From IMG/VR virus record IMGVR_UViG_3300034157_000066: DNA of 64,000 bases; one strand, given 5' to 3'. The translations under genes were made by a program, and so were the position numbers. Below the pieces are notes generated by a model. That model saw nothing but the letters and a program-made list of their open reading frames with translations, was not told the origin of the DNA and searched no databases. This document shows positions 2,553-57,798 of the stretch, piece by piece. The DNA comes from a virus. Taxonomy: Duplodnaviria > Heunggongvirae > Uroviricota > Caudoviricetes. Position 1 is the first letter of the stretch. Each line of letters starts with the position of its first letter.

Positions 2553-2918
2553 ATGAACACTTCCCAAGCAGTTGCAAAAGTAGTTACTCACGCTGACACC
2601 GAGAACAAAACTGTTGAAGAACTTCTTGAAGCAATGGAAACTCTTCGTCAAATCATGGTTGAAAACTATGGTGACAACTCAGGTCGTAATGAATATGATG
2701 TCTATTTCGAAGCTGGTTCCAAATACACTCGCCTCTACTACAAAACCAGTTGCCAACGCATGTGCCTTGGCTTTATCGTGAACACCAAGAGCCACAAGAA
2801 GTTCCCATTTGGCACGCTCTTGATGTCAGCCGGTTGGAAAGCACCAGCAGTCAATAAAGGGCGTGGCAACATCTTTAATCTTGAAGGTAAAACTGTTCAG
2901 TGGACAGGCATTCAATAA
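2553..2918 (+). CDS. hypothetical protein, member 3 (more diverged) of tandem triplicated family
   Basis: Promoter aaaatgttgtttttgatt...tgTTATAAT, leader cacacaaacagagatggagttacag, terminator aagggcttcggcccttttttg at 2941-2962. Confidence 0.75.
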   Translation: MNTSQAVAKVVTHADTENKTVEELLEAMETLRQIMVENYGDNSGRNEYDVYFEAGSKYTRLYYKTSCQRMCLGFIVNTKSHKKFPFGTLLMSAGWKAPAVNKGRGNIFNLEGKTVQWTGIQ

Positions 2919-2940
2919 TTCGAATGTCGCTAACAAAAGA

Positions 2941-2962
2941 AAGGGCTTCGGCCCTTTTTTGC
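2941..2962 (+). terminator. rho-independent terminator (CUUCGG hairpin)
   Basis: aagggcttcggcccttttttg. Confidence 0.75.
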
Positions 2963-3053
2963 TATCTTCTTTTTCATTATATCTATCATTGTTGAGCGAT
3001 TTATGATATTATAGTCCAAACATTTCGAGGTTTTTTAATTGAAAATTACAACA

Positions 3054-4277
3054 ATGATTGATGACATAGAAAAAATTCTAGAAGAATCATCAGAACGGCT
3101 AAATTTAAAGCAGATTAACACTAAAGAACAACCGTGCAAGGCTGATGCTGATAATCAATTTTCTTTTAGTTCGATGGGACTTAATGATAAAATTAAAATA
3201 TATTTAATTGCCCATAAAGATGTTAGTGTTGTCTATGATTTCTTAAAACTGTCACATAAGACAATTAAAAACATCGAAAAAGCTCGAAATTTCATTGCAA
3301 ATATTATTCCAGAAGAAACATCAGTTCAGCATATTATTAACAAAATACAAATTCATACTGATGACAAAATTGAACTCTCTATCATTGGTTGTGGGTGTAC
3401 AAGTTTTAGAGTGCTTCTTCGTGATGGCTTGGTATCATTTTCTATATCACACGTCAGCAATTCATATAGCAAGGAAACCTATAATTTTGAAAACTATGAT
3501 GATTTTGATGATTTAGTTAATACAGCCGTTAATAAAATCATTCCGTCTTTTATTGAAACCATAGGATTTTCATCAGGAGACAAAAACTCACCAGACGTTG
3601 TAGATTTTATTGAAAAAACAGCCGAACAAATGTTTTTTGAAAAAGAGTTAAACCCACTTTTCAATTATATTAAGCCAAATGAGCTGGTTCATTTAGTTTG
3701 TTCTGATTTAAATTTAAATTTGAATGATGTCATGCAGTCATTAAACTACAAAGAAAATGACTCTATGAAAAGTCTTAATATTCCTAATAATTTAACAACT
3801 ATGATATCTTCTATTGCTCAACATCTGGTTAATATTGATGGCATTAAATATAAATTTGATCAACTCATTAGCCTTATCATTCTTTATAATAATATTACTA
3901 ATAAAAAAGAAAAATTTTCAGTTACTTTTTATCCAGTGCAAAAGAAAGATTTCTTTAAAGGTAATTCTTTTAATCGGTCTTACTATGTACTTAATATCAG
4001 TGAAACATTAACAATTTACATTGGTCATAAACTAGGTGATGGTAAAAAAGATGACATAGCTTATTTAGATGATAGTGATGATTTTAAATTGTTCTCATTT
4101 GTTTATTTAAAAGACTTAATGAATTATGACTACTATGAATACTTAACTAACGATATTGATTATGTTTACAATGCTATTTTAACAGATCTTCGGTCTATTA
4201 TTAAAAAGGTTCTCTGCAAAGAGGATGACACTATTAGTTTCCGAGATCTTGAAGTTTATAAAATGGCTGTATTTTAA
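3054..4277 (+). CDS. hypothetical protein (~407 aa), very AT-rich, paralog of 4388..5611
   Basis: Long ORF; TTG at 3039 or ATG at 3054 possible; shares N-term (IYLIAH(K/E)DV...DFL(K/N)LS) and C-term (ND(I/L)DY(V/I)YN(A/V)ILT...(L/I)EV(Y/F)KMA) motifs with next gene. Confidence 0.6.
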   Translation: MIDDIEKILEESSERLNLKQINTKEQPCKADADNQFSFSSMGLNDKIKIYLIAHKDVSVVYDFLKLSHKTIKNIEKARNFIANIIPEETSVQHIINKIQIHTDDKIELSIIGCGCTSFRVLLRDGLVSFSISHVSNSYSKETYNFENYDDFDDLVNTAVNKIIPSFIETIGFSSGDKNSPDVVDFIEKTAEQMFFEKELNPLFNYIKPNELVHLVCSDLNLNLNDVMQSLNYKENDSMKSLNIPNNLTTMISSIAQHLVNIDGIKYKFDQLISLIILYNNITNKKEKFSVTFYPVQKKDFFKGNSFNRSYYVLNISETLTIYIGHKLGDGKKDDIAYLDDSDDFKLFSFVYLKDLMNYDYYEYLTNDIDYVYNAILTDLRSIIKKVLCKEDDTISFRDLEVYKMAVF

Positions 4278-4387: not shown

Positions 4388-5611
4388 ATGAACATTAGTG
4401 AAAAAATCAATGAATTGGAAATCAATATTAAATCATTTATTGCGGAAAATAATCTTCCTGTTTTAATTCCAAATAATAATTATCGCATTTCTTTGGATGG
4501 CGAAAATCAATGCGTTTTTGCTCAGAGTGGTAATTCACATCTTTATTTGATTGCACATGAAGATGTTCAAATCATGGAAGATTTTCTTAACTTAAGCCCT
4601 AATACAGTTAACAAGATAAATAAAATTCGGGCTTTTATTCGTGATATGTATGATGACACCAATAATTTCAAACATAAACGGTTGAAAGTTAAAATTGATC
4701 CAGATCAAAGTGTTGAGTTTTCGATTATCGGCCTTGGACTTGGTGGTCTTAGAATTGAATTAAAAGCCACTGAGCTTGTTGTTTCTTGGATTTATGGCGA
4801 TAACGTTAGCGTCATTTATTCTCTCGATGATGACATTGAACAGAAAGTAAATGAAGCATTGGATCTTGTTATACCAACAATATTAACTAAGCTTGGATTT
4901 TTGAAATGCTCAGAACACTCAGAAGAAGTTATTGATTTTATGAATAAATCTACTGATGATTTAATTGTTGAACATTTTTCAAAATTTGGATTTGATTATA
5001 TTCATCAAAATGAATTGATTGCAAATGCATGTTCATCGACCAAAATTAGTTTGGATGACCTTAACAACTATAATAAAAAAAATGAAAAACCTAATCTTAT
5101 TAAAATACCCCATATGATGATGTCTATTTTACCAAAAATCATGAGTAATATTTCATCAGATATTTCAGTGCATTCAAAATTTAAACAACTCCTTAGTCTT
5201 ATTTATTTTTACGACTATTTAAAACCAACAAACTCAGAAGCTCTCTTGATTTTTAAAGAATATTCAAAATTTGATTTAGCCCCATCAGCTAGTTTTCAAT
5301 CTGGATATTTTACTCTTTTAATGGGTGGTCTTCTTAGACTTGATGTAGGGCACCAATTAAAACCAGATCCAGATGATGAAGAACATCTGTTTGATAGCCC
5401 AAGTGAAAATGGTTATGCCTATATGTTTGAAATTTATCTTTATGATGTAGAAGCACCTGATGCTTTTTACAAATACTTTTGTAATGACCTTGATTATATT
5501 TACAATGTTATATTGACTAAAGTTAGAAACTTAATTAATTCAGCTATCTTAAATGTCGATGAGCCACTTACAGCCAGACAAATTGAAGTTTTTAAAATGG
5601 CGACTGTTTAA
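4388..5611 (+). CDS. hypothetical protein (407 aa), paralog of 3054..4277
   Basis: Promoter gtggTATAAT ~4337-4346, RBS gtgaggcgataATG; paralogy to upstream gene. Confidence 0.65.
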   Translation: MNISEKINELEINIKSFIAENNLPVLIPNNNYRISLDGENQCVFAQSGNSHLYLIAHEDVQIMEDFLNLSPNTVNKINKIRAFIRDMYDDTNNFKHKRLKVKIDPDQSVEFSIIGLGLGGLRIELKATELVVSWIYGDNVSVIYSLDDDIEQKVNEALDLVIPTILTKLGFLKCSEHSEEVIDFMNKSTDDLIVEHFSKFGFDYIHQNELIANACSSTKISLDDLNNYNKKNEKPNLIKIPHMMMSILPKIMSNISSDISVHSKFKQLLSLIYFYDYLKPTNSEALLIFKEYSKFDLAPSASFQSGYFTLLMGGLLRLDVGHQLKPDPDDEEHLFDSPSENGYAYMFEIYLYDVEAPDAFYKYFCNDLDYIYNVILTKVRNLINSAILNVDEPLTARQIEVFKMATV

Positions 5612-6744: not shown

Positions 6745-7260
6745 TTATTTCAATTCATCATATGTTTTATTAATTAGTAATGTTGACGGCCCATATGAAC
6801 ATGATATTTCATATACTTTATCATAAAATGCAGGTCTTACTACAAGATGCATATCTCTTGTTGCATCTGCTGAAAATGTTCCTATGTTTTCTGCTGTCAA
6901 AAATTGAGTGTAATAAGTTCCATTATTTAGATGGACATCAATTAAAATAACTTGACTATATCTTGAAGACTTGTCTGCAAGCTCAGCAGATGTAGAAAAC
7001 CCGCCATCAGTTTTGTATCCAATGTTGTAATATATAATATCTGGATACTTCGATATCGTTGGATAACCATTCATCAACTCAGGTGTAGAGAAGTTTTCAG
7101 GACACTCTTCCGGTTCAGCAGGTGGAGTAGGTTCTGTACTTCCGCTATCTTTATCAATAAATGAAATGGGTTCAGGCAGTTTGAAATAATAACTATATTC
7201 AGCAAATGAACTTAATGGTAATAATGTTAGTAGTGCAACAGTAAATTTTATTAATCTCAT
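6745..7260 (-). CDS. secreted protein with signal peptide and Pro-rich segment (171 aa); member of AEY-x-I/V N-terminus family
   Basis: N-term MRLIKFTVALLTLLPLSSFA|EYSYYFKLPEP; own promoter on minus strand (TTGACT...TAAAAT in 7261-7320); low GC. Confidence 0.7.
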   Translation of the reverse strand: MRLIKFTVALLTLLPLSSFAEYSYYFKLPEPISFIDKDSGSTEPTPPAEPEECPENFSTPELMNGYPTISKYPDIIYYNIGYKTDGGFSTSAELADKSSRYSQVILIDVHLNNGTYYTQFLTAENIGTFSADATRDMHLVVRPAFYDKVYEISCSYGPSTLLINKTYDELK

Positions 7261-7323
7261 AATATTCTAATTGTTTTATATTATTTTATATATCAAAAAT
7301 ATTAAGTCAATTTCATTAGATAA

Positions 7324-10520: not shown

Positions 10521-11108
10521 ATGACTATGACCGCTATTGAACTTCGCAAAGACCTCCTTATTTGGGTGGATCTTGAAACGACTGGCTTGGATATTGCTGA
10601 CAAGTTGTCGGGTGCTCAGTGTCATAAAATCCTTGAAGTCGGTATTCATATTACCGATTCGAAATTCAATATCATTGATGAAGGCTTTGAAGTGGTTATT
10701 CATCATGACGTTGAAGAAGCCAAAGCACTGGCAAATGATTACGTTCGCAATATGCACATCACCAGTGGCTTGTGGGATCGTGTTGACGCATCGCCTGTTT
10801 CGTTGGCCGAAGCAGAAAAAATGATTTTGGCTTATATCGCTCAATTCAACATCGCTCCGGGTTCCAGTCCAATTTGTGGTAACAGTGTTTCGCTGGATCG
10901 CAACTTTATCATGGCCCAAATGTCAACCTTTGCGAGCATCCTGCATTACCGCATCATTGACGTAAGCACTCTTAAAGAAATCGTGTGGCGTGTGAAACCA
11001 GAAGTGGGTATGATGGTTAAAAAGCAAGAAAAACATCGTGGACTTGAAGACATTAAAGAGTCCATTGCGGAATATAAAATTTATGAAGAGTTCTTTTTTG
11101 TAAAATAA
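10521..11108 (+). CDS. orn: oligoribonuclease (Orn, DEDDh 3'-5' exoribonuclease)
   Basis: WVDLETTGLD (Exo I), SPICGNSVSLDRNF (Exo II), HYRIIDVSTLKE...W.VKPE and C-terminal H/D motif closely match bacterial Orn; RBS ttAGGAGtgacagataATG; terminator 11143-11163. Confidence 0.8.
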   Translation: MTMTAIELRKDLLIWVDLETTGLDIADKLSGAQCHKILEVGIHITDSKFNIIDEGFEVVIHHDVEEAKALANDYVRNMHITSGLWDRVDASPVSLAEAEKMILAYIAQFNIAPGSSPICGNSVSLDRNFIMAQMSTFASILHYRIIDVSTLKEIVWRVKPEVGMMVKKQEKHRGLEDIKESIAEYKIYEEFFFVK

Positions 11109-11142
11109 CATAGAATTGTTTAAACTCTACAATACACCTTAA

Positions 11143-11163
11143 AACCTCTTCGGAGGTTTTTTC
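11143..11163 (+). terminator. rho-independent terminator (CUUCGG-type hairpin)
   Basis: aacctcttcggaggttttttc. Confidence 0.75.
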
Positions 11164-11241
11164 TATTCAGATGAATTAAATCCTTTTTTTTTGAAACCAT
11201 TTTGTGTTATACTCATTTCATAATTTAAAGAGGCTTTACCC

Positions 11242-11694
11242 ATGAAAGAACATCAAAACCTGATTACTGCTACCAACGTCTATGCTTGCATTGTAAACGT
11301 CAACAAACTGAAACGAGCATTGGAAGAAAGCCCCGAAGGCTTTATTGAACGCTTGACTTCTTTGCTGCCAGATACGGGTGAAGACTTGATTAAGGCTGAT
11401 CTGGAAGAAGTGTCTGAAGCCTATATCTCTGACCCTTGCAAAGAACATCTGCAAAACCTGATGGAATTCATCATGGAAATTGACCATGTAATCATTTTTG
11501 ATAAAGTGGCTCTTGAAACCACTGAACTCAACAAACTGGCTCAGTATGCTGCAGATACTTTTCTGGATGATGACTATCCACGAGAAACTGAACTGAGCAC
11601 TTCACGGGTTAATCAGCAAATGAAGGGCAATGAAGCTGCAATTAAAGCGGCTACTGCTGCCTTTGAGAAATCCCTTCGTGAAAAGTTCATGTAA
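11242..11694 (+). CDS. hypothetical acidic protein (150 aa)
   Basis: Promoter tgTTATACT ~11205, RBS aaagaggctttacccATG, terminator aaggtcacttcggtggccttttt ~11714. Confidence 0.65.
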   Translation: MKEHQNLITATNVYACIVNVNKLKRALEESPEGFIERLTSLLPDTGEDLIKADLEEVSEAYISDPCKEHLQNLMEFIMEIDHVIIFDKVALETTELNKLAQYAADTFLDDDYPRETELSTSRVNQQMKGNEAAIKAATAAFEKSLREKFM

Positions 11695-12352: not shown

Positions 12353-12425
12353 GGCTGTTTGTAGTTCAGTTGGCAGAACTCCGTCGAAAAACGGTAGTCG
12401 TGGGTTCGAATCCCATCATACAGCC
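12353..12425 (+). tRNA. tRNA-like element with canonical D- and T-arms but non-canonical anticodon arm (pseudo-tRNA or unusual tRNA)
   Basis: 73 nt; D-loop AGTTGGCA, T-arm GTGGG-TTCGAAT-CCCAT, acceptor ~6-7 bp with one T.T; anticodon region CCGT-CGAAAA-ACGG gives 4-bp stem + 6-nt loop (or 3 bp + 8 nt); followed by terminator gaccactttcgagtggttttttt. Confidence 0.5.
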
Positions 12426-13119: not shown

Positions 13120-14004
13120 ATGACAAAGAAATATATTTTAGTGCTAATTGCTCTATCCAGTTTAGGCACTATATCGCAAGCTGATTATCAAATTAGAATT
13201 CCAATTCAACAGGCAATCTCTTTCAAGGATGTTACTTCTGGGGGTGGATCAGGCGGTAGTGGCGGCAATGGTAATGGTGGCAGCAACGGTGGTGGTGGAT
13301 TAGTTTTTACTGACCCTACTATATTAGCTGCTTATGAGGAAAAGTGTGGAGCATTTCCTAACAAAATAAATCCGTTGGCTGATCCTATACGAGACTATGA
13401 CATTAGTTGTGGTGATTATTCAAATAGAGATCTTTCTGGTTATGTGCTTGATAAAACAGGTATGCTTTTTACTAATTTTGCAAATTCAATATTAGATGGA
13501 GCTATATTAGGTGATTCTAGCTTGGCTAACAGTAATCTATCAGGAGCATCCTTAATAGGTGCTCAGTTTACCGTAAATGGCGAAAGCACTACATTAACGA
13601 ATGCTGATATTAGTAATGCTAACTTAACAAATGCTTATATGAACAAATCATATTTAGAAAAAACTAATTTTACTGACTCTAATTTAACAGGTGCTGTATT
13701 AACTAACACTAGTTTTGTTGGTGCAAACTTGAAAAATGCTAACTTAACGAATACTAATTTTGACACTTCCTATGTTATTGATACGAATTTTACTAGTTCA
13801 AATTTTACAGGAGCCACATTAACTAATACTGCATTTATTAATACTAATTTTACTAACGCAAATTTGATTGGAGCTGATCTCAGCACCAGTGCGTTCAGCA
13901 ATGTTGATTTCACTAATATCTTGTATGATGCGACCACAAAATGGCCTTCATGGTACACACCACCACAATCTAGTAATGGATATCAGTTCACACCGCAATG
14001 GTAA
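13120..14004 (+). CDS. secreted pentapeptide-repeat protein (294 aa) with Gly-rich linker
   Basis: Signal peptide ...GTISQA|DYQIRIPIQQ (same AxY.I..P mature N-term as secreted family); GGGSGGSGGNGNGGSNGGGG; >20 tandem A(N/D)L(T/S)x pentapeptides (ANLTN, SNLTG, ANLKN, TNFTS, ADLST). Confidence 0.75.
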   Translation: MTKKYILVLIALSSLGTISQADYQIRIPIQQAISFKDVTSGGGSGGSGGNGNGGSNGGGGLVFTDPTILAAYEEKCGAFPNKINPLADPIRDYDISCGDYSNRDLSGYVLDKTGMLFTNFANSILDGAILGDSSLANSNLSGASLIGAQFTVNGESTTLTNADISNANLTNAYMNKSYLEKTNFTDSNLTGAVLTNTSFVGANLKNANLTNTNFDTSYVIDTNFTSSNFTGATLTNTAFINTNFTNANLIGADLSTSAFSNVDFTNILYDATTKWPSWYTPPQSSNGYQFTPQW

Positions 14005-14183: not shown

Positions 14184-14639
14184 ATGATTTTAACTATCGA
14201 ACTTGTACCTAAATCTTGCTGGTTTTCTAACTTGCGAGATCACCTCACGGAAGCACAATGGAAAGAAGTCAAGCTTAGCACATTTAAGGCTGCAGATAAT
14301 CGTTGTGAAATCTGTCATGGTGTTGGGGATAAGTGGCCGGTAGAATGCCATGAGGTTTGGGAATATGACGATATCAATAAGGTACAGCGTCTGGCAAGAA
14401 CTGTTGCTCTTTGCCCATCATGTCATCAAGTTAAGCATATAGGTATGGCGATGGTTACTGGTCGTTACAATCATGCAAAATCACATTTCTCAGCTATCAA
14501 TAAAGTCCCTATGAGACAAGCAGAACGCTATATTGATAAAGCCTTCAACTTGTTTAATGACCGATCAAAGTTTGAATGGACACTAGACATTTCTTGGATT
14601 AACCAAAACTTCGGATTCACTATTAAAGAAAAACGTTAA
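14184..14639 (+). CDS. HNH-like zinc-finger endonuclease family protein (151 aa)
   Basis: CEICHG...ECHEVWEYDD.N...CPSCHQVKH arrangement (CxxC...H...N...CxxC-H) typical of HNH nucleases. Confidence 0.5.
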   Translation: MILTIELVPKSCWFSNLRDHLTEAQWKEVKLSTFKAADNRCEICHGVGDKWPVECHEVWEYDDINKVQRLARTVALCPSCHQVKHIGMAMVTGRYNHAKSHFSAINKVPMRQAERYIDKAFNLFNDRSKFEWTLDISWINQNFGFTIKEKR

Positions 14640-22088: not shown

Positions 22089-22613
22089 ATGGCTAATAAA
22101 ACAATCAAGGCAACATTGATTATCGAAGACAAAAACATTAGTGTTGACGAACTCAACGATCTGTTTTCCGGTGCGACCAACAAGATCAAAGGATTGAGCT
22201 TCTTGCTCAGGGATCAAGCCCACAAAGCAAATACGCTCTGTAAATATCTGTTGACGGCGATTAAGGATGATAAATCAGCCGCCATCGAAATTGACGAAAT
22301 CGACATGCCAAAGTCGCTGCCTGCCATTGTGAAGCTGGCCGCAAAAGTCGGTAACAAAATTGACCCTGCTGTTTACCGTGAACCCCACGATATTTTCTGC
22401 CGAGAGCTTGAAAAAGCAGATGTTGTTTATGTTTGCACTCATTTCTTGGGCATGAAACTGTTTGTCACTCGTATGGAAGATACGAAAGGCGAGCAAAAAG
22501 GGCGTCACAACAAAGAATGGCTCGAAAACTTTGTTGATATTAACTTCAACAAAGATCGTAAAGGCTTGTGCCTTGATGTAAGTGCGGTTTTCCTGAGTTC
22601 TCAACCCGAGTAA
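22089..22613 (+). CDS. hypothetical protein (174 aa)
   Basis: Promoter gtgTATAAT ~22043-22051, RBS tttGGAGtttcacATG; track ORF 22077 trimmed. Confidence 0.6.
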   Translation: MANKTIKATLIIEDKNISVDELNDLFSGATNKIKGLSFLLRDQAHKANTLCKYLLTAIKDDKSAAIEIDEIDMPKSLPAIVKLAAKVGNKIDPAVYREPHDIFCRELEKADVVYVCTHFLGMKLFVTRMEDTKGEQKGRHNKEWLENFVDINFNKDRKGLCLDVSAVFLSSQPE

Positions 22614-22687
22614 TTGGTTGACGATTTTTTCAAAAAACTGTATAATCAAGGAGATCTTCGGATCTCCTTTTTTTTGAGATTAAAATT

Positions 22688-23152
22688 ATGAACTTACAAC
22701 TTAGACACCGTTGTCTTCAGTTTGAAACGGAAGGGACTATTGTTTACGACCCCGACCGTGGAACCATGAAGAAAAACATTGAACATTGGGCTGTTATCAC
22801 GATAGAACCGGATATCGCGGCCTACTATCGCCATCAGTTTTATCAACGGTATGGTATCGAGTTGGATAAACCTAACTGGGATGTTCATTGCTCAGTGCTG
22901 AAAGGGTATACCAATACAGATACATCTAAGCCGTGGGGCTGGCTTGACCAACAACCTGTTGAACTGCATTACACCCATGAATTGTTCTGGAATGATTCGC
23001 ATGTGTGGATAAACTGTTATTCAGCCGAGTTTTTCAAAATTCGTGAATACTATAACGTGTTGGGCACAGACCAAGGCCATATCACTATTGGGAAGTTTAA
23101 GCATTATCAAAAAGACAGGCTAAAACCCTTCAAAAACTACGTTCCAGATTGA
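22688..23152 (+). CDS. putative 2H phosphoesterase family protein (154 aa), Acb1-like candidate
   Basis: Two H-x-S/T-x motifs (HCSVL at aa 67, HITIG at aa 131) spaced ~64 aa apart as in LigT/2H phosphoesterases; size matches ~150-aa phage 2H enzymes; promoter ctgTATAAT ~22641; terminator hairpin before it. Confidence 0.4.
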   Translation: MNLQLRHRCLQFETEGTIVYDPDRGTMKKNIEHWAVITIEPDIAAYYRHQFYQRYGIELDKPNWDVHCSVLKGYTNTDTSKPWGWLDQQPVELHYTHELFWNDSHVWINCYSAEFFKIREYYNVLGTDQGHITIGKFKHYQKDRLKPFKNYVPD

Positions 23153-31580: not shown

Positions 31581-32435
31581 ATGCTTAAAAAGATTTTTGC
31601 TTCTCTTGTTCTTCTGGCATCAGTTGCCCTCAGTGGGTGTTCTGAAACCGTAGACGCTGGTTTTGTTGGTGTTGTTGAAAAACATCCCTACGTTGGTCCG
31701 GGTGGTGTAGAGAAAGAATTTTACAAAGGTGGTGATCGCTACTATATCTCGCCAACCTCCATCATGCACCGCTATGACATTAAACCTATTCAGAAAGAAG
31801 AAGCGTTTAATGACTTGGCAACCATTAACTCGACTCCGGTAGACTTTAAAGCGGTGGTTCGTTATGAAATCATTCCTGAAAAAGCTTACATCTACCATGA
31901 AAGCTTTGGTAATGCGATGTATGATAATAACTTGAAAAAAGACTTTCAAAACATGCTTCGTGACTTTGCTCGAAAACACACTGTGAAGCAACTCACTACA
32001 GAACAGACAGTGACTGACGCAGGTGAAGACGATGTTTACAAGAAAATGGTTGACATTGTTGTAGCAAAAGGCATTCCGGTTCGAATTTTGGCTGTAACTA
32101 TCGGTGCAATTATGCCACCCGATGAAGTTCTTGCAGAAACTGCTCGGACAGAAGCTCAAATTCAACGTGCATTAACTGAAATTGAACGAGCATCTGCTGA
32201 AACTCAGCGAAAAGAAGCTGAAACCAACAAAGCTGCTGCTGACAATGAATACATGAGCAAAATGAAAATGACACCTGAGCAATACTTGCGAGGTCGTGAA
32301 ATTGATAACCAGCGTGAAATTGTTGAAACGGTCAAAAAGAAAGATAACGTCAACATGTTGATTGTCTTGGGTGGTGGTGGTTCCCTTCCACAAGGGGTAA
32401 CAGTTCCACAGCCAATCGTTCAACCAAAGCAGTAA
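31581..32435 (+). CDS. SPFH/band-7 (prohibitin/HflK-like) domain lipoprotein (284 aa)
   Basis: Lipobox LSGC; TVDAGFVGVVEK start typical of SPFH domain entry; C-terminal Ala/Glu/Gln-rich coiled-coil; terminator aaaggccaactagtggccttttttg ~32447-32475. Confidence 0.5.
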   Translation: MLKKIFASLVLLASVALSGCSETVDAGFVGVVEKHPYVGPGGVEKEFYKGGDRYYISPTSIMHRYDIKPIQKEEAFNDLATINSTPVDFKAVVRYEIIPEKAYIYHESFGNAMYDNNLKKDFQNMLRDFARKHTVKQLTTEQTVTDAGEDDVYKKMVDIVVAKGIPVRILAVTIGAIMPPDEVLAETARTEAQIQRALTEIERASAETQRKEAETNKAAADNEYMSKMKMTPEQYLRGREIDNQREIVETVKKKDNVNMLIVLGGGGSLPQGVTVPQPIVQPKQ

Positions 32436-32492
32436 ATAAGCAATAAGAAAAAAGGCCAACTAGTGGCCTTTTTTGTTGTCTTTAATTAAGTA

Positions 32493-32960
32493 TTAAAGGT
32501 TAGGGTAGCGGCATATTTTATAGTAGTTATACTTGGTATCAGCTCTATTAAATGCTCCTAATACATAAGTGTATTGACCAGCAATAAATGGGAAATATTT
32601 ATTTTGAGTATATACACTGTCTATAACTATTGTGTTAGTCCATTTAATATATCTAATCATGCCTATTGGATAAGGTGTTGATGTATTAAATGTCATTGCA
32701 TAGTTAGAACTTTCTGAATAGTTTTGGCATGTATACCCTGCCCTATCTTCGTCCTTTGGTGGCACTGGCGGTTCAGGAATTACAGGGACTTCTGGCTCAG
32801 GCGGTATTGGTGGTGTTTCTGGATTTGTAGGCGGTTTGATCTTTGAAAATACGATGTCACCTTCATTTAAGTGAGCTTTTGGATGAATGACCACTTGATA
32901 ACTTGCATTCGCTATTGTTGTTACAGCCAATAAAGAGGCTATCATTATTATTTTTTTCAT
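32493..32960 (-). CDS. secreted protein (155 aa): signal peptide, Pro-rich linker, Cys-bounded aromatic C-terminal domain (...YYKICRYPNL)
   Basis: MKKIIMIASLLAVTTIANA|SYQVVIHPKA; PPTNPETPPIPPEPEVPVIPEPPVPP; own minus-strand promoter tgtatTATAAT ~32975-32990; C-term aligns with 8515/16311/56048 C-termini. Confidence 0.7.
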   Translation of the reverse strand: MKKIIMIASLLAVTTIANASYQVVIHPKAHLNEGDIVFSKIKPPTNPETPPIPPEPEVPVIPEPPVPPKDEDRAGYTCQNYSESSNYAMTFNTSTPYPIGMIRYIKWTNTIVIDSVYTQNKYFPFIAGQYTYVLGAFNRADTKYNYYKICRYPNL

Positions 32961-33110
32961 ATTTTATTTTTATTGTTCTTAATATTATAATACATCTATT
33001 TAATAAAATAACAACATAGCCAGTAATTACGGAAGTTTTTCTAAAAAAATATTGTCATTTTTCAGTTTTTGTTGTATAATTATTCCACACTTATGTTGAG
33101 AGGATTTACC

Positions 33111-33365
33111 ATGACTACCGTTCAAACTCCAAAAGAAAGCGTGATTGAAGAAGCTACTGACATGATCGACCGTGTTCTTGCTGACGCTCGGGCTAAACTG
33201 CTGAAAGCTGTTGAATGTGGTGCCCTGAACATCACCGAAGATACCTCGACACACATTGCCCTTGGTAAAGTTGTTGCCAAAGCTGTTTTGCTGGATGCTA
33301 TCGACAATCAGTTGACTTTGGGTAAACGTGATAAAGAAGTCAAGAACCTTCGCAGCCAGATTTAA
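33111..33365 (+). CDS. hypothetical protein (84 aa)
   Basis: Promoter ttgTATAAT ~33072-33080, RBS ttGAGAGGAtttaccATG; terminator aagcaggctttcggggctgcttttttt. Confidence 0.65.
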   Translation: MTTVQTPKESVIEEATDMIDRVLADARAKLLKAVECGALNITEDTSTHIALGKVVAKAVLLDAIDNQLTLGKRDKEVKNLRSQI

Positions 33366-33492
33366 GCAGTAGCGACGTTCAAAAAAGCAGGCTTTCGGGG
33401 CTGCTTTTTTTTGACTTAAAATAAGATAAATGTTGTTTTTGTTTTTCATCCTTGTTATAATTGCTCCATCAAAACCAAAGGGGTTTACCATC

Positions 33493-33771
33493 ATGTCTAT
33501 CACTACTGTAACCGTCACTTTTAAAGTCGATACTGTTCTTCGTGACGATACCACTGACTTCTTTCATTTGGACGCTGAAATCCATCATAAGAATGTTTAT
33601 GAGTTTCAGGTGCTGAGCTATGACAAAGACCGTAAACTGTGTGTGGCGGAACTCTACTTGCACAGTGCAGTAGACGAAAGCAAACTGCCAACCCTTTTCG
33701 ATGGTTCCCGACTGTCGGTTAGCGTGGATTGCCGCGAAGTTGAATACTCAGGTTTGACGATTGCTGCATAA
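33493..33771 (+). CDS. hypothetical protein (92 aa)
   Basis: Promoter aaatgttgtttttg...tgTTATAAT 33428-33468, RBS aAAGGGGtttaccatcATG. Confidence 0.65.
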   Translation: MSITTVTVTFKVDTVLRDDTTDFFHLDAEIHHKNVYEFQVLSYDKDRKLCVAELYLHSAVDESKLPTLFDGSRLSVSVDCREVEYSGLTIAA

Positions 33772-33836
33772 GGTCAACAAGGTTATTAATCAGCAGTCCT
33801 TCTGGGCTGCTTTTTCTTTTTTTAAGGAGTTCACAG

Positions 33837-34019
33837 ATGTTAAAAGAAGATCTTTATCACTGGCAAGACACCCCAGAAGAAATGCAAAAATGCGACGAAG
33901 TATTCGAAAAATTTAACGCGGCTGGTTTGCTGGATGATTTGAAATACATCATTGATAAACGCATGGCAGACGCCCGTTCAGAAGAAGCGTATAATAATGC
34001 GAATTTTTCCGAAACGTAA
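33837..34019 (+). CDS. hypothetical protein (60 aa)
   Basis: RBS ttAAGGAGttcacagATG. Confidence 0.55.
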   Translation: MLKEDLYHWQDTPEEMQKCDEVFEKFNAAGLLDDLKYIIDKRMADARSEEAYNNANFSET

Positions 34020-34134
34020 CAAGCAATCATCTTCAAGAAATTTGTAGATATTTTTCAATAATCTGTTTTTTGACTTGCCTTCACTGCTGTATTTCGATAT
34101 AATAGCCCAACTCAAACCAGTAGAGATTTGAACC

Positions 34135-35256
34135 ATGTCCAGCATCTTCCCGCGTATTGAAACCCTTGATGATATGCTTCCTCACATCAAAGACCGTGCC
34201 TATATTTCTGTTAATAAACAGGATAACGGTGCCAACATCGTTTGCTATAACATCAGCAACGGCGACTCTTTCAACACTCCGGTTGAAAAGGAAGCTCGCG
34301 GTATTACCTTTGACGACAACGGTAAAATCCTGTCGCGTCCATTGCACAAATTCTTCAACTTGGCAGAGCGTGCAGAAGTCCAACCAGCCGTTTTGGATTG
34401 GAACACGATGGTCGCCGGGTTTGATAAAATGGATGGCTCCATGATTACCACAGGGCTGTTCAACGGCGAATTTTTTGCTAAGTCCAAGAAGTCTTTCAAA
34501 TCGGATGTGGCTGTTTCTGCAGAAAGTTTTGTGTCTCGTAACCAGAAATACTACGAGTTCACCAAATATTGCTCTCAGGCCCAACTGACCCCTATTTTTG
34601 AATTCACTTCGCCAAAACATCGTATCGTTTTGCGTTATGACGAAGACAACATGACACTTCTTCATGTTCGTCACAACATCACAGGCGATTACTTAATGCC
34701 TGCTGACAAAGACCAACTGGCGTTGTTGTTTGATATTCCTGTTAACAAGCCACTGTTTGGTGAAGAATTTGATTTGGCTGCTTTATTGAAGTCGCTGAAC
34801 ACTGTTGAAGGGATTGAAGGCTACGTTATTCAGTTCGTTAACGGTAACATGATCAAAATCAAAACCAAATGGTATATGAACCTCCATCATGCGGTTAGCT
34901 TTGTTCGTGAACGTGATATTGCTCGGTTGGTGGTTGAAGAAAAACTTGATGATTATATCGCTTATTTGTCGCTGAACTCGCCAACGGCTGATTTGAGTGA
35001 GATTTATCGAATCAATGACGCTATCAAAGCTTCGATTGAAGCGTTGTCGAAAGAAGTTGATGATATTGCTGCTGAATTCCAAGGTGTTGATGTGAAAACT
35101 GCAGCAATTCAGCTTAAAGGCCATAAACACTTTGGTTTTGTTATGGGTGCAATTCGTGGTCACAAAAACGACTACCTGTATCACTACTCTAAAAACCATC
35201 TGGTGGATTGGTCGTTGGAACAAATTGAGCTTGGCGACTTGTCAGCTCCGGTTTAA
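34135..35256 (+). CDS. rnlA: RNA ligase 1 family (T4 RnlA-like) paralog A, 373 aa
   Basis: KxDG adenylation motif (FDKMDGSM), RGITFD.NG...RP..KFFNL, EGYV.QF..G...KIKT.WY.NLHH blocks; same length (373-374 aa) as T4 Rnl1; promoter cgaTATAAT ~34096-34104; terminator aagccctgcacttgcggggcttttt ~35270. Confidence 0.8.
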   Translation: MSSIFPRIETLDDMLPHIKDRAYISVNKQDNGANIVCYNISNGDSFNTPVEKEARGITFDDNGKILSRPLHKFFNLAERAEVQPAVLDWNTMVAGFDKMDGSMITTGLFNGEFFAKSKKSFKSDVAVSAESFVSRNQKYYEFTKYCSQAQLTPIFEFTSPKHRIVLRYDEDNMTLLHVRHNITGDYLMPADKDQLALLFDIPVNKPLFGEEFDLAALLKSLNTVEGIEGYVIQFVNGNMIKIKTKWYMNLHHAVSFVRERDIARLVVEEKLDDYIAYLSLNSPTADLSEIYRINDAIKASIEALSKEVDDIAAEFQGVDVKTAAIQLKGHKHFGFVMGAIRGHKNDYLYHYSKNHLVDWSLEQIELGDLSAPV

Positions 35257-35373
35257 ATCAGTATGAAGAAAGAAGCCCTGCACTTGCGGGGCTTTTTAAT
35301 AATAATCTATTTTTTGGTTGTTAATATTTAGTGTTTGATGTATAATCAATCCATCAAAACAGAGGTTTATCTC

Positions 35374-35757
35374 ATGACAACCATCCGCGATAAAGCAGCT
35401 AACGTAGACATCACCAGCAAAGGCTTTCTTGATTTTACTGCCCCATTCCGAAAAGGTCAGCATTCTGTTATTTGCTGGTCTTTGGTCGAAGATGGTTCTT
35501 GTGGCATAGAGGAAACCATTGCTTGTCCACCTAATTTTCAACTGGTGGCTATGATGTTTCCAGACGTTTCGGCGGTTGTTATGATGGAGTTGGCTCAAAA
35601 ACTGCGTAGCTTTTTCAACTCTTGGTGGATAACCGAAGAACCTGAAGCTTATGCAGAGCCGCCACGAAACTATTCGCGTTTTTCTGCAACCATTGAATAC
35701 ACTCGCCTTTACGCTTTCTATCTTGAACAGAAAGAGGCGATGGACGTAAAAGCGTAA
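35374..35757 (+). CDS. hypothetical protein (127 aa) between the two RNA ligases
   Basis: Promoter gatgTATAAT ~35338-35347, RBS acAGAGGtttatctcATG. Confidence 0.6.
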   Translation: MTTIRDKAANVDITSKGFLDFTAPFRKGQHSVICWSLVEDGSCGIEETIACPPNFQLVAMMFPDVSAVVMMELAQKLRSFFNSWWITEEPEAYAEPPRNYSRFSATIEYTRLYAFYLEQKEAMDVKA

Positions 35758-35848
35758 ATATCACAACAAAAGGCAGTCTTTGACTGTCTTTTTCATTGTT
35801 TGAAAACAATATTTCATGTATAATCCACTGATTAACACAGAGGTTTCT

Positions 35849-36166
35849 ATGACTAAATTTCGAATTGCTTATGACCCAGAAAATGGTGTTTCAACCCCAG
35901 ATGGAGTGTGTGTTGCTATTGTTGACGAGCTGATTTCTCTTCGTCAGTTTGGAGATGTGACTTACACCACTGCTACGGCCACTGTTATCACTGCATTCCG
36001 GTTGGCTGCGGCTGAAAAGAAAATCAGCGTTGACGATATTGTCTTTGTTTTTGATGGGTCTGATGTCACAATGGACAACAAATTTGAACTGTCGGCTTGG
36101 CCTAAACAGGGCGACATTCAAGGCAACATGCTTGGAAAAATCATGCAAGCACGAAAAAAAGTTTGA
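35849..36166 (+). CDS. hypothetical protein (105 aa); paralog of 54270..54584
   Basis: Promoter atgTATAAT ~35817-35825, RBS acAGAGGtttctATG; shared YDP..GV.T.DG...and FRLA...K.(L/I)S..DIV blocks. Confidence 0.65.
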   Translation: MTKFRIAYDPENGVSTPDGVCVAIVDELISLRQFGDVTYTTATATVITAFRLAAAEKKISVDDIVFVFDGSDVTMDNKFELSAWPKQGDIQGNMLGKIMQARKKV

Positions 36167-36222
36167 ATTAAAAATCAGTTTTTGATATAATCAATTCAGA
36201 CAATTTAATCGTGGAGATTCAC

Positions 36223-37344
36223 ATGACTTATCAACAAGAACTGTATGCCCAACTGATGAACCTGTTGGTGACGAATCCGGGGTCGTTCAAATACCGTGAT
36301 GAAACCTCGGCAGTAGACGGCGGGACTTACCGTGTCTTCAACTATGACATTCCAAAGCACTCCGAATTCAAACTTCCGGGTGCTAAGGATTGCCGTGGGG
36401 TCATGTTCTACATGGGCGGTGATGATCCAGTGCTGGTTGCATTGCCTATGCAGAAATTTTTCTCGCTCGGTGAAACCCCAGAGACTCAAAAGATCAAGCC
36501 AGAAGAAGCGGATCATGCTTACTTGAAGCCGGACGGTTCCTTGCTGACCAGCTATATCTCGCCGGTTAACAATACGCTTTACTACAAGAGCAAAAAGAAG
36601 CCAACTTTTGCCGATTATGACCTTGTTGAAAAGTCTATCAGCCCTGAATTGCACGCTGACATTGAACGGTTGACCCGCACAGGTGTTTCTGTTGACTTGG
36701 AATTGACCACGCCCAAAAACCGCGTGTTCATTGAATACACTGATTACGCTGTTCATATCCTAAAAGCCCGTGATATGAGCACTGGTGCTTATGTTGATAT
36801 TCGTTCGGCTGAATTCGCTGCCAAATACCCGGTTATTGCGGCCCATTTGGTGAAACGTATCCCTATCAATGAACTCAACGTCAATGACCCTGAGATTGAG
36901 GGTTATGTGGTTGAATTTGGCACTGACATGTATAAGGTGAAGACAATTCCTTACCTGAAAATGTCGGCAGTTGTCAACATTCAGGATCGGTCGAAGGAAC
37001 GTCAGGTTATTTATGAAGCAACACTTCACGAAATTCTGGATGAAATCCGTTCGTTGTATCACTACCGGACGCACAGCGACAACTTCCCACTGGCTGAAAT
37101 TCTGGCTCGCTTGGATGAAGTAGAAGACTATGCACGTAAAAGCTACCATTACCTTGTTCGCACGGTCGATAGCTTCCACAATGAGCATAAAGGTCTGGAA
37201 CGTGGCGATTACGCTCGTAAAGCCAAAGAAGTGGCTCCATTGCTTCTGTCGGTGTTGATGAGCAAGTTTTCGGGTGATGAGATTGATTACAAACAAGCTG
37301 CTATCATGGTATTTGCTCGTAAACAAGTGCCTATTCCCGAGTAA
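36223..37344 (+). CDS. rnlA: RNA ligase 1 family (T4 RnlA-like) paralog B, 373 aa
   Basis: GGTYRVFNYD...CRGVMF, MQKFFSLGETPE, YLKPDGSLLTSY (KxDG), EGYVVEFGTDMYKVKT, EHKGLERGDYARKAK closely parallel T4 Rnl1 blocks; promoter ttgaTATAAT ~36183-36192; terminator aacggccctagtcttctagggcttttttat ~37353. Confidence 0.85.
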   Translation: MTYQQELYAQLMNLLVTNPGSFKYRDETSAVDGGTYRVFNYDIPKHSEFKLPGAKDCRGVMFYMGGDDPVLVALPMQKFFSLGETPETQKIKPEEADHAYLKPDGSLLTSYISPVNNTLYYKSKKKPTFADYDLVEKSISPELHADIERLTRTGVSVDLELTTPKNRVFIEYTDYAVHILKARDMSTGAYVDIRSAEFAAKYPVIAAHLVKRIPINELNVNDPEIEGYVVEFGTDMYKVKTIPYLKMSAVVNIQDRSKERQVIYEATLHEILDEIRSLYHYRTHSDNFPLAEILARLDEVEDYARKSYHYLVRTVDSFHNEHKGLERGDYARKAKEVAPLLLSVLMSKFSGDEIDYKQAAIMVFARKQVPIPE

Positions 37345-49332: not shown

Positions 49333-49536
49333 ATGACCAACAAAACAGTTAAACGCGAAGGTATTGTCCATATCACCCCAGATGGCAAAATTGCTCCTGT
49401 TAAGTTTTCTGTTTCCAGTGATCTTCATTTTGATTTTCCGCGTGGTGGTTTTGGTGGGCATGTTGATGATGAACCCTTTGTGATTCCCGTTCAACGAGAA
49501 TTTAAAGAAGAACGAAGAGTCTTCCTTCCCCAGTAA
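49333..49536 (+). CDS. hypothetical protein (67 aa)
   Basis: Promoter gtgTATAAT ~49297-49305, RBS cAGGAGttatatcgtATG. Confidence 0.55.
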   Translation: MTNKTVKREGIVHITPDGKIAPVKFSVSSDLHFDFPRGGFGGHVDDEPFVIPVQREFKEERRVFLPQ

Positions 49537-49594: not shown

Positions 49595-50197
49595 ATGACC
49601 ATTCCAGTATTCAATATCAAAGAAATCATTTCTCATGTTAAGCGTTCCTTTATGCAAGTGGAACAGGTGAAAGGCTCCTATGAGAGTATTTTTGGCGGCA
49701 CCAAAGAAATCGATCATTATGTGCTCACTAAACCGTCAGCCATCTGCCTGACCCTGTATGACAAGGCGACTGATGAATTCGTTTTCGTGAAGCAATTCCG
49801 CATGGGTGCCTTCAAACATCCTGACGAAACTGATGCTTGGGTTATCGAGCCTGTGGCCGGTCATATCGACCCGAAAGAAGACCCCCTGCTGGCCGCTCAG
49901 CGTGAAGGTGAAGAAGAAACCAATATGCTGATCAAGTTGGAAGACATTCGTTACCTGTGCAAAGGCTACACCAGTGCTGGTATTTCCAACGAAATGCACC
50001 ACACCTACTTTGCCTATGTGGACTCTTCGAGCTTCGACCTGAACCGTTCGCATGGTATTGATGATGAAGACATTCAAATCATCAAAATCAGTCGTGAAGA
50101 TACCATGAAGATGATTGAAAGTGGCGAAATTCGCACTTGCAGTGCTATCATCGGTGTTTCACTGGCAATTGCAAAAGGTTTGGTGCCAGCACAATAA
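49595..50197 (+). CDS. Nudix hydrolase (ADP-ribose/nucleoside diphosphate pyrophosphatase-like), 200 aa
   Basis: Nudix box GHIDPKEDPLLAAQREGEEETNM (Gx5Ex7REUxEExGU pattern); FVKQFRMGAF resembles NudF/NudE substrate-binding stretch; RBS ccAAGGAGttccacctttATG. Confidence 0.75.
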   Translation: MTIPVFNIKEIISHVKRSFMQVEQVKGSYESIFGGTKEIDHYVLTKPSAICLTLYDKATDEFVFVKQFRMGAFKHPDETDAWVIEPVAGHIDPKEDPLLAAQREGEEETNMLIKLEDIRYLCKGYTSAGISNEMHHTYFAYVDSSSFDLNRSHGIDDEDIQIIKISREDTMKMIESGEIRTCSAIIGVSLAIAKGLVPAQ

Positions 50198-57721: not shown

Positions 57722-57798
57722 GGGACTTTAGCTCAGTTGGTTAGAGCGTCCGACTCATAATCGGCAGGTCGTAGGTTCAAGTCCTACAAGTCCCACCA
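57722..57798 (+). tRNA. tRNA with CAU anticodon (Met, or Ile2 if lysidinylated), CCA encoded
   Basis: Acceptor GGGACTT/AAGTCCC, D-arm GCTC-AGTTGGTTA-GAGC, anticodon loop CTCATAA, T-arm GTAGG-TTCAAGT-CCTAC, ACCA 3' end. Confidence 0.85.

Follow-up and report, generated by a model that had tools for sequence, protein, structure and literature searches.

A putative 2H phosphoesterase of a novel jumbo phage, divergent from the 2H-SAK model and distinct in sequence from Acb1, with a possible role in RNA repair

The window analysed here, i.e., a stretch of 64,000 nucleotides of phage DNA, encodes a 154-aa protein that is very probably an active 2H enzyme, as predicted from its catalytic residues and its modelled fold, and that profile searches assign with good confidence to the 2H-SAK family, as a divergent member lying beyond the reach of the Pfam model. 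Regarding its function, the reading that we prefer, at a probability of roughly one half, is that of a cyclic-phosphate phosphodiesterase acting in RNA repair, possibly also in the processing of ADP-ribose (Appr>p).

Open Reading Frame and Catalytic Motifs

The open reading frame extends on the + strand from an ATG at 22688 to a stop codon at 23150–23152, with no in-frame start upstream, and the invariance of the first two residues (M1/N2) among close homologs supports this start codon. The first-pass annotation had pointed to two motifs in the translation, HCSVL (residues 67–71) and HITIG (residues 131–135), with their histidines 64 residues apart; both the position of the frame and the motifs are confirmed by the sequence:

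22688..23152, + strand: coding sequence of the putative 2H phosphoesterase (154 aa, standalone, probable divergent member of the 2H-SAK family)
22886..22900, + strand: motif 1, H67-C-S69-V-L, at the start of predicted strand 67–72, with the predicted catalytic His and Ser
23078..23092, + strand: motif 2, H131-I-T133-I-G, at the start of predicted strand 131–136, with the predicted catalytic His and Thr

A bare pair of HxS/T motifs is weak evidence for a 2H identity, being uncommon rather than unique: two of the 97 ORFs of the window carry an HxS/T-x-hydrophobic pair with a spacing of 40–110 residues. What raises the present pair above chance is its conservation across 138 relatives. The other ORF with such a pair (14184–14639) was considered as another 2H gene and rejected, as it has neither family nor profile support. 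A third HxT (H94-Y-T96), absent from the first-pass annotation, occurs in the 154-aa protein and is not conserved in its relatives. The protein is small and soluble-looking.

Residue Conservation and Predicted Fold

Conservation was counted over 138 diverse relatives, with a mean column identity of 16%. In this alignment, H67 is present in every sequence (138/138), residue 69 is a serine or a threonine in 137/138 (S in 101, T in 36), H131 and T133 are found in 137/137 and 136/137, respectively, and G135 in 128/137; the HxS/T tetrad is invariant in the close-homolog set as well. P22, Y47, W83 and Y95 are near-invariant, as is R119 (listed below), and residue 72, after motif 1 (H-I-S-x-x-R-G), is an arginine in 98/138 relatives and a lysine in 17/138. 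Counts specific to the window's own clade were obtained from an alignment of 73 sequences and concern one element at each end of the protein:

23042..23044, + strand: codon of R119 (R in 132/138 relatives), in helix 113–121, a candidate phosphate-binding residue
22700..22714, + strand: N-terminal element of the clade, L5-R-H7-R8-C9 (H7 in 54/66, R8 in 56/66, C9 in 52/66), mostly gapped in the wider family
23126..23140, + strand: C-terminal tail of the clade, P147-F148-K-N-Y151 (F148 in 52/58, Y151 in 48/57), a possible analogue of a lid

Across the clade, the second residue of the N-terminal element may be a lysine as well as an arginine (L-R/K-H7-R8-C9). The clade also has an F-W-N motif (residues 100–102) that is mostly missing in the wider family. 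At the position of the tail, where the AlphaFold2 pLDDT is about 74, 113–115 of the 138 wider-family members have no residue; most of them stop 5–10 residues past motif 2, and the stretch from H131 to the end of the protein has a median of 25 aa in the clade vs. 13 aa in the wider family.

The AlphaFold2 model computed from the 73-sequence alignment (pLDDT 91.7, pTM 0.85) features strands at 12–20, 34–38, 67–72 (HxS), 90–101, 105–111 and 131–136 (HxT), and helices at 41–55 and 113–121. In this model, the fold is a duplicated strand–helix–strand unit, with an HxS/T motif opening each final strand. The internal duplication is recovered by aligning the profiles of the two halves (hhalign, residues 28–78 vs. 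99–140), in which HISV pairs with HITI at 66% probability (E 5.5e-5). A Foldseek search of the model against the PDB returned nothing significant, with 2H proteins at the top of the list; we judged the protein structurally similar to solved 2H enzymes. Against BFVD, Foldseek gave one strong match, to an uncharacterised protein of a marine phage, followed by weak matches to entries bearing the names Acb1, 2'-5' RNA ligase, CPDase and 2H-SAK.

Placement in the 2H-SAK Family

Scans of the 154-aa protein against Pfam, NCBIfam and PADLOC produced no model match, and sequence searches of the PDB, either with the single sequence or with the 73-sequence profile, produced chance matches only. The sole direct match is to PHROG 12204 (E 2.5e-20; residues 12–137 of the protein vs. 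positions 2–135 of the 138 of the profile), a phage family without annotation, through which a membership is gained but not a function. The region has no megablast match in the phage collection, hence we regard the phage as novel. Nine close relatives (45–91% identity) were found with a word-indexed search, the profile built on them led to 85 relatives, and HMMER, run exhaustively over 1.84 billion representatives, yielded 687 clusters at E ≤ 1e-3, of which 174 reached E ≤ 1e-10. These relatives are nearly all standalone proteins of 120–180 aa, many of them on contigs of 200–950 kb, and two of the contigs that carry them look bacterial. The annotated phage collection has the family in 66 records, each annotated “hypothetical protein”; among the family records listed, all are jumbo phages (337–635 kb), and the phages that harbour it are Rak2-like ones such as CBB, GAP32, fHe-Yen9-04, K64-1 and Serratia BF, along with Agrobacterium Atu_ph07 and an uncultured phage.

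The family link was established by transitive profile searches, from the profile of the window clade to the relatives and from these to PF22547 (2H-SAK). This Pfam model is matched at E ≤ 0.01 by 97 of the 138 diverse relatives, and LigT_PEase is matched weakly by three (best E 1.3e-4). The window protein itself does not match PF22547, even at E ≤ 10, and remains below its gathering threshold (27 bits); it is the combination of matching relatives and a non-matching protein that designates the latter as a divergent member missed by the Pfam model. Among the relatives, P0075 (40.5 bits) and P0066 (33.3 bits) pass the threshold and many others score just under it. The profile of the 138 relatives recovers the window clade at E ~1e-43, the family HMM gives the window protein 165.7 bits, and the homolog of fHe-Yen9-04 (P0251, i.e., g178, 140 aa) is named [quoted passage not shown] in UniRef. 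With the conserved tetrad, the duplicated fold of the AlphaFold2 model and this profile link, the 2H-phosphoesterase identity initially proposed for the protein is well borne out.

The likeness to PF22547 includes the HxS...HxT tetrad, common to both, and extends from before motif 1 to just past motif 2, to which the window clade adds the N-terminal L-R-H-R-C, the FWN motif and, at the C-terminus, a tail of 18 residues that includes the conserved F148/Y151. The window gene is standalone, with no SAK-type HAD or other repair gene nearby. SAK is said to have been defined in a paper by Burroughs and Aravind in 2016; PF22547 2H-SAK is defined computationally. Our search of the literature turned up no 2H-SAK protein that had been characterised experimentally.

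Comparison with Acb1 and Other 2H Enzymes

Belonging to the Acb1 family and functioning like Acb1 are separate questions. On the former, the Acb1-like identity, which the first-pass annotation had raised as one of two candidates, does not hold as a family membership: neither the protein nor any of its 138 relatives matches PF23474, and a profile–profile comparison with T4 Acb1 (hhalign, using the profile of the 138 relatives) reached a probability of only 0.9%. As a control, T4 gp57B was recognised by PF23474 at 2.7e-60 and retrieved the FBB1 Acb1 in the PDB at 4e-62, while PDB 7T26 (Acb1) was matched by neither the single sequence nor the profile of the window protein. The hhalign alignment paired motif 1 with motif 2 of Acb1, because of the internal duplication; a circular permutation with respect to Acb1 was considered and rejected, given the 0.9% probability. 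By its sequence, the window protein is thus outside the Acb1 family.

The tetrads themselves, HxT/HxT in the anti-CBASS 2H nuclease Acb1 (PF23474; T4 gp57B; PDB 7T26/7T27) vs. HxS/HxT in the window protein, are common to all 2H enzymes and do not discriminate. In contrast, the layouts differ: T4 Acb1 has its tetrad at H44/T46/H113/T115, with 37 residues after T115, whereas motif 1 of the window protein lies at residue 67, after an extra conserved strand (G16, Y20, D21, P22), and only 21 residues follow T133. Acb1 has base-stacking aromatics (Y12, W74, F107) and a C-terminal lid, found at 145–152 in T4 Acb1 (PMC9117128). The window clade has the conserved F148/Y151 tail, absent from the wider family, and many conserved aromatics. 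Finally, when the Klebsiella Rak2-like phage OU509535.1 was scanned with a three-sequence Acb1 profile and for ORFs with two HxS/T motifs, the family member was the only 2H-like protein (E 4e-42).

LigT typically has an arginine after motif 2, whereas the present family has an Arg/Lys after motif 1. Compared with the RNA 2',3'-cyclic phosphodiesterases LigT/ThpR (PF02834/PF13563; PDB 4QAK, 1VGJ, 5H7F, 2D4G), the window protein is also ~20–30 residues shorter and has no Pfam match. As for the viral 2',5'-phosphodiesterases (coronavirus ns2 and the C-terminal domain of rotavirus VP3; PDB 4Z5V, 4RPT), they have no sequence similarity to the window protein and, unlike this phage protein, they come from eukaryotic RNA viruses; to our knowledge, there is no 2-5A pathway in bacteria.

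Genomic Context in the Window and in Relatives

Short + strand ORFs without Pfam matches are densely packed around the gene. The features of the window that bear on its expression and on its possible partners are the following:

22618..22646, + strand: sigma-70-like promoter TTGACG-17-TATAAT (11/12 consensus matches; a consensus match only), directly upstream of the 2H gene
22648..22677, + strand: terminator-like hairpin AAGGAGATC-TTCG-GATCTCCTT followed by a T-run (9 pairs, 4-nt loop), just ahead of the ATG
34135..35256, + strand: Rnl1-type RNA ligase, paralog 1 (PF09511, E 1.5e-27), 11 kb off, a possible downstream partner
36223..37344, + strand: Rnl1-type RNA ligase, paralog 2 (PF09511, E 2.2e-8; weak T4_Rnl1_C), 13 kb off, a possible partner

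In appearance, the hairpin is a terminator for the upstream gene (end at 22613); the start site predicted for the 2H transcript overlaps with it. Between 14 and 33 kb, terminator-like hairpins are enriched (36 found vs. 14.2 ± 4.4 expected) and the strongest promoter matches fall between genes, on the + strand, which suggests many independent transcription units for the host polymerase, as is typical of early accessory genes. The two Rnl1 ligases that had been mentioned as potential partners are indeed present, according to PF09511; they share 26% identity and are located 11–13 kb from the 2H gene, not adjacent to it. The other recognisable functions of the window are Band_7/SPFH, pentapeptide-repeat, RNase T-like, HNH, Nudix and GNAT proteins, as well as tRNA genes, the Nudix gene being 26 kb from the 2H gene. 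The 64 kb contain no polynucleotide kinase, HAD phosphatase, KptA, Macro, YqeY, CCA-adding enzyme or Acb1, nor any NADAR or PARP, and local phmmer searches of the window for homologs of Macro, YqeY, CCA-adding, HAD_SAK and Rnl2-type proteins were all negative.

The close relatives share the gene order of the window, with neighbours that are equally uninformative, and several further loci have no informative neighbours either. The informative contexts belong to two independent lineages of jumbo phages (Rak2-like and Atu_ph07-like). Among the Rak2-like phages, CBB and fHe-Yen9-04 have an Rnl2-type RNA ligase (PF09414 + OB domain) 2.5 kb upstream of the 2H gene, a DUF2828/DUF7788/vWA protein 0.25–0.46 kb upstream, a translationally coupled ORF directly downstream and YqeY at +4.3 to +4.7 kb; these two phages and Klebsiella OU509535 share a CCA-adding enzyme at +1.6 to +2.8 kb, then Nudix and glutaredoxin genes (within +4.4 kb), and a weak Macro-like ORF at +4 to +5.8 kb. 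In the Atu_ph07-like group (loci L008, L013 and L020), the 2H gene is followed by one small ORF and then by YqeY, at +400 nt; Atu_ph07 has a Macro domain (E 2.4e-10) 4.9 kb upstream, and L013 and L020 have NADAR, an NMN transporter and a NadR-like kinase upstream. A single protein (P0189, 335 aa) is a fusion of the 2H domain to YqeY. Elsewhere, a 437-kb phage (L017) has two HAD_SAK_2 genes (5 kb off), TyrRS, Nudix and the MYG1 exonuclease within 6 kb, PARP lies ~6–8 kb from the 2H gene at two loci, and RF-1 adjoins it at one. More generally, PARP, NADAR and NAD-salvage genes occur near the relatives in L013, L015, L020 and L023, and neighbours of the SAK-type HAD or RNA-repair kind occur at L017 and in the Rak2-like phages, but neither in the window nor at many other loci.

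Jointly, these neighbours point to tRNA/RNA-end and NAD/ADP-ribose chemistry over cyclic-oligonucleotide signalling. The links are loose and, owing to inherited synteny, each phage group counts as one observation; moreover, genes up to 5 kb apart can co-occur by chance, because jumbo phages pack many auxiliary genes.

Proposed Function and Alternatives

We infer that the protein would be a catalytically intact, metal-independent 2H phosphoesterase from a divergent 2H-SAK clade of a novel jumbo phage, expressed as a separate short transcription unit from a host-type promoter. Both HxS/T motifs would line a common cleft, H67/S69 coming from one half and H131/T133 from the other. In this cleft, general acid–base catalysis on a cyclic phosphodiester would fall to H67 and H131 and the orientation of the phosphate to S69 and T133, and the substrate nucleotide would be held by R119 and several conserved aromatics. 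Its likeliest substrate would be the 2',3'-cyclic phosphate ends that host metal-independent anticodon nucleases make on tRNA or other RNA; these would be opened to 2'-phosphate/3'-OH ends, which ATP-dependent RNA ligases, e.g., the two Rnl1 enzymes of the phage, might then seal. A related possible substrate would be ADP-ribose 1'',2''-cyclic phosphate, which arises from the NAD-dependent removal of the 2'-phosphate. Such a scheme is in line with published predictions: 2H domains occur in 33–35% of medium and jumbo phages, where their predicted task is to prepare the way for phage tRNA ligases by removing 2',3'-cyclic ends, the remaining 2'-phosphate being then removed by KptA as ADPr>P (PMC9503650, PMC7824862).

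A role in RNA repair is supported by the YqeY, RNA ligase, CCA-adding, Macro, Nudix and HAD_SAK neighbours of the relatives and, in the window, by the two Rnl1 ligases, the tRNA genes and the sigma-70-like promoter. On the other side, the window gene is surrounded by orphan ORFs, with the Rnl1 genes 11–13 kb off, the neighbour links are loose, the YqeY fusion is a single case and the protein scores below the Pfam 2H-SAK model. Moreover, the normal substrate of T4-type Rnl1 is a 2'-OH/3'-OH end, so that a 2'-phosphate product would need both a tolerant ligase and a 2'-phosphotransferase, and no 2'-phosphotransferase was seen in the 64-kb window.

The protein might instead be a functional analogue of Acb1, that is, a compact early phage 2H nuclease that destroys the nucleotide signals of host immunity, whether the cyclic di- or trinucleotides of CBASS, the cyclic oligoadenylates of type III CRISPR or 2'-5'-linked signals, which we deem rather unlikely. 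It does share with Acb1 the superfamily, the minimal size and the kind of tetrad, and several BFVD matches bear the name Acb1, at weak E-values, but no sequence relation to the Acb1 family emerges when T4 Acb1 serves as control. Similarly, the residues H7-R8, F148 and Y151, conserved in the clade and missing from the wider family, might recall the aromatic stacking and the C-terminal lid used by Acb1 (PMC9117128), and the F..Y tail of the clade would shut over the ligand like that lid, yet most of the wider family, which ends so soon after motif 2, is devoid of a lid segment. Standing alone behind a sigma-70-like promoter of its own, among orphan early genes, the gene has the arrangement typical of counter-defence genes, and one homolog (L023) has an “Acb2_Tad1_hairpin (weak)” gene 7 kb away; nevertheless, the fusion to and adjacency with YqeY and the proximity of RNA ligase, CCA-adding, HAD_SAK and Macro genes lead towards RNA and ADP-ribose chemistry, and some family members are on bacterial-looking contigs. 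As regards phage ranges, they are largely complementary in the phage collection (66 records for the family, in Rak2-like phages and Atu_ph07, vs. 1542 for T4-type Acb1, mainly in T4-like phages), although fHe-Yen9-04 apparently has both a protein named Acb1 (148 aa) and g178 (140 aa), going by database names only, which argues against redundancy.

Two other functions were weighed. Plant and yeast 2H CPDases offer a precedent for the hydrolysis of Appr>p, which favours an enzyme dedicated to soluble ADP-ribose derivatives, e.g., ADP-ribose 1'',2''-cyclic phosphate or some other cyclic signal or toxin derived from NAD. This activity of the plant and yeast enzymes is discussed in PMC9503650. In such a case, the protein would assist a phage Macro, NADAR or Nudix protein in detoxifying or silencing a NAD-based host defence, in agreement with the Macro genes near relatives (in Atu_ph07 and, weakly, in Rak2-like phages), with the recurrence of NADAR (along with the NMN transporter and the NadR-like kinase), PARP, Nudix and NAD kinase, and with the Nudix gene of the window. 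We nonetheless find it distinctly unlikely: these NAD/ADP-ribose neighbours are kilobases off and vary by lineage, the window has no Macro, NADAR, PARP or KptA and its Nudix gene is 26 kb away, while the only fusion partner and tightest neighbour, YqeY, is related to tRNA and translation, not to NAD. The tRNA genes of the window and the tRNA-related neighbours of the relatives would also suit an RNA-processing role other than repair, for instance as a Usb1-like exoribonuclease (3'-trimming or 2',3'-cyclic-phosphate-forming) or as a reversible 2'-5' ligase/nuclease, with small RNAs or tRNAs of the phage or the host as targets, but this is very unlikely, for the window protein has no specific sequence link to Usb1 or LigT, LigT_PEase being touched weakly by only 3/138 relatives. 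We know of no phage precedent for a non-repair 2H role in RNA processing.

Cyclic-phosphate processing in RNA repair remains our preferred reading. More tentatively, and with considerable doubt, the clade marked by L-R-H-R-C and F..Y could represent either a second 2H counter-defence nuclease of phages, of an origin separate from that of Acb1 and directed at a nucleotide signal of host immunity, maybe one outside the range of Acb1, or the end-healing enzyme missing from a Trl1-like (2'-phosphate) tRNA repair that would operate with duplicated Rnl1 in jumbo phages lacking a T4-type Pnkp.

Implications for Jumbo Phages

That large phages possess 2H phosphoesterases, predicted to act in RNA repair or in the degradation of signals, was already known, as were the Pfam entry and the UniProt names. 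The novelty lies in a sub-threshold clade of ~70 members with terminal elements of its own, placed in 2H-SAK with the help of a confident structural model, and this placement would give a fold-level annotation to hundreds of “hypothetical” proteins of jumbo phages. For the 2H-SAK family as a whole (687 representative clusters), the choice of substrate would lie between RNA ends, ADP-ribose cyclic phosphate and immune signals, and the identity of that substrate bears on how jumbo phages may survive defences that cleave tRNAs or rely on nucleotide signalling.

2H-SAK Family Members and Their Genomic Settings

A link between the 2H-SAK family and YqeY emerges among the relatives of the 2H gene. 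The metagenomic relative P0189 (335 aa) combines a 2H-SAK-family domain and a YqeY (GatB-tail-like) domain in a single protein. In Atu_ph07-like jumbo phages, one small ORF separates the 2H-SAK-family gene from a YqeY gene. No description of this link was found in the literature searched. The 2H-SAK-family genes with this arrangement in the Atu_ph07-like phages are:

6845-7303, locus L008 (Atu_ph07)
10932-11387, locus L013
10938-11414, locus L020

Family members also occur on two bacterial-looking contigs, L022 (953 kb) and L024 (235 kb), which carry PBP5, SLT and LipA/LipB genes and MutL, Tex and cytochrome b genes, respectively, and on which no phage genes were found near the family member; therefore, the family is not exclusive to phages. 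On the 693-kb megaphage contig L023, the stretch 7-10 kb upstream of the family member holds a 170-aa gene (2852-3364) with a weak match to the Pfam family Acb2_Tad1_hairpin, together with a gene for a PARP-domain protein, and may be a counter-defence island.

Predicted Transcription Signals around the 2H Gene

Terminator-like hairpins are strongly enriched between 14000 and 33000 (36 observed vs. 14.2 ± 4.4 expected); many of them have CTTCGG (UUCG) loops and are sited in intergenic gaps. The top sigma-70-like promoter matches of this region are likewise intergenic, and on the + strand. Immediately upstream of the 2H gene (22618-22677), the predicted -10 box abuts the terminator-like hairpin of the preceding gene, so that new transcripts would begin within the hairpin.

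A Candidate RNA-Repair Module

Two diverged, paralogous RNA ligase genes, 26% identical to each other, begin 1.7 kb downstream of a Band_7/SPFH gene, with small ORFs in between:

31581-32435, Band_7/SPFH protein (PF01145, E 1e-15)
34135-35256, Rnl1-type RNA ligase
36223-37344, Rnl1-type RNA ligase

SPFH/Band-7 modules have reportedly been proposed as scaffolds of RNA-repair systems, and the three genes (31581-37344) could be the real RNA-repair module of the window.

Other Genes of the Window

Further genes outside these regions are:

12355-12425, tRNA-like gene, 71 nt
13120-14004, pentapeptide-repeat protein, 294 aa (PF00805, E 8e-28)
49595-50197, Nudix gene, 200 aa
57370-57455, ordinary tRNA-Leu(taa)
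57722-57798, ordinary tRNA-Met(cat)

ARAGORN returned the tRNA-like gene as "tRNA-???", with an undetermined anticodon given as "aa"; its T-arm is good (GGTTCGAATCC), and the gene may encode a tRNA-like RNA that is degenerate or of an unusual kind. Because pentapeptide-repeat proteins can act as DNA mimics, the gene at 13120-14004 is a possible candidate for counter-defence or gyrase protection. The Nudix gene is preceded by a 67-aa ORF (49333-49536) that also bears a Nudix-box-like motif and could be a second, tiny Nudix, a remnant or a frameshifted duplicate.

Paralog families are numerous within the window; examples are:

3054-4277 and 4388-5611, tandem pair of 407-aa ORFs, 31% identical, no Pfam match
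19761, 21320, 44997 and 45778, four-member family (~210 aa), one of which is the second gene upstream from the 2H gene
7362, 8515, 16311, 56048 and 32493, five-member family, mostly on the minus strand
1795/2553, 30071/30622, 37775/38128 and 55089/55479, tandem pairs of small ORFs

Phage Lineage

The whole window has no near-identical match in a collection of 50,697 phage records, and close relatives are found on metagenomic contigs of up to 209 kb. Its G+C content is 38%, and the best identity of its Rnl1 is 42%, to the Rnl1 of the Ralstonia jumbo phage RsoM2USA. The window appears to belong to a so far undescribed lineage of jumbo phages.
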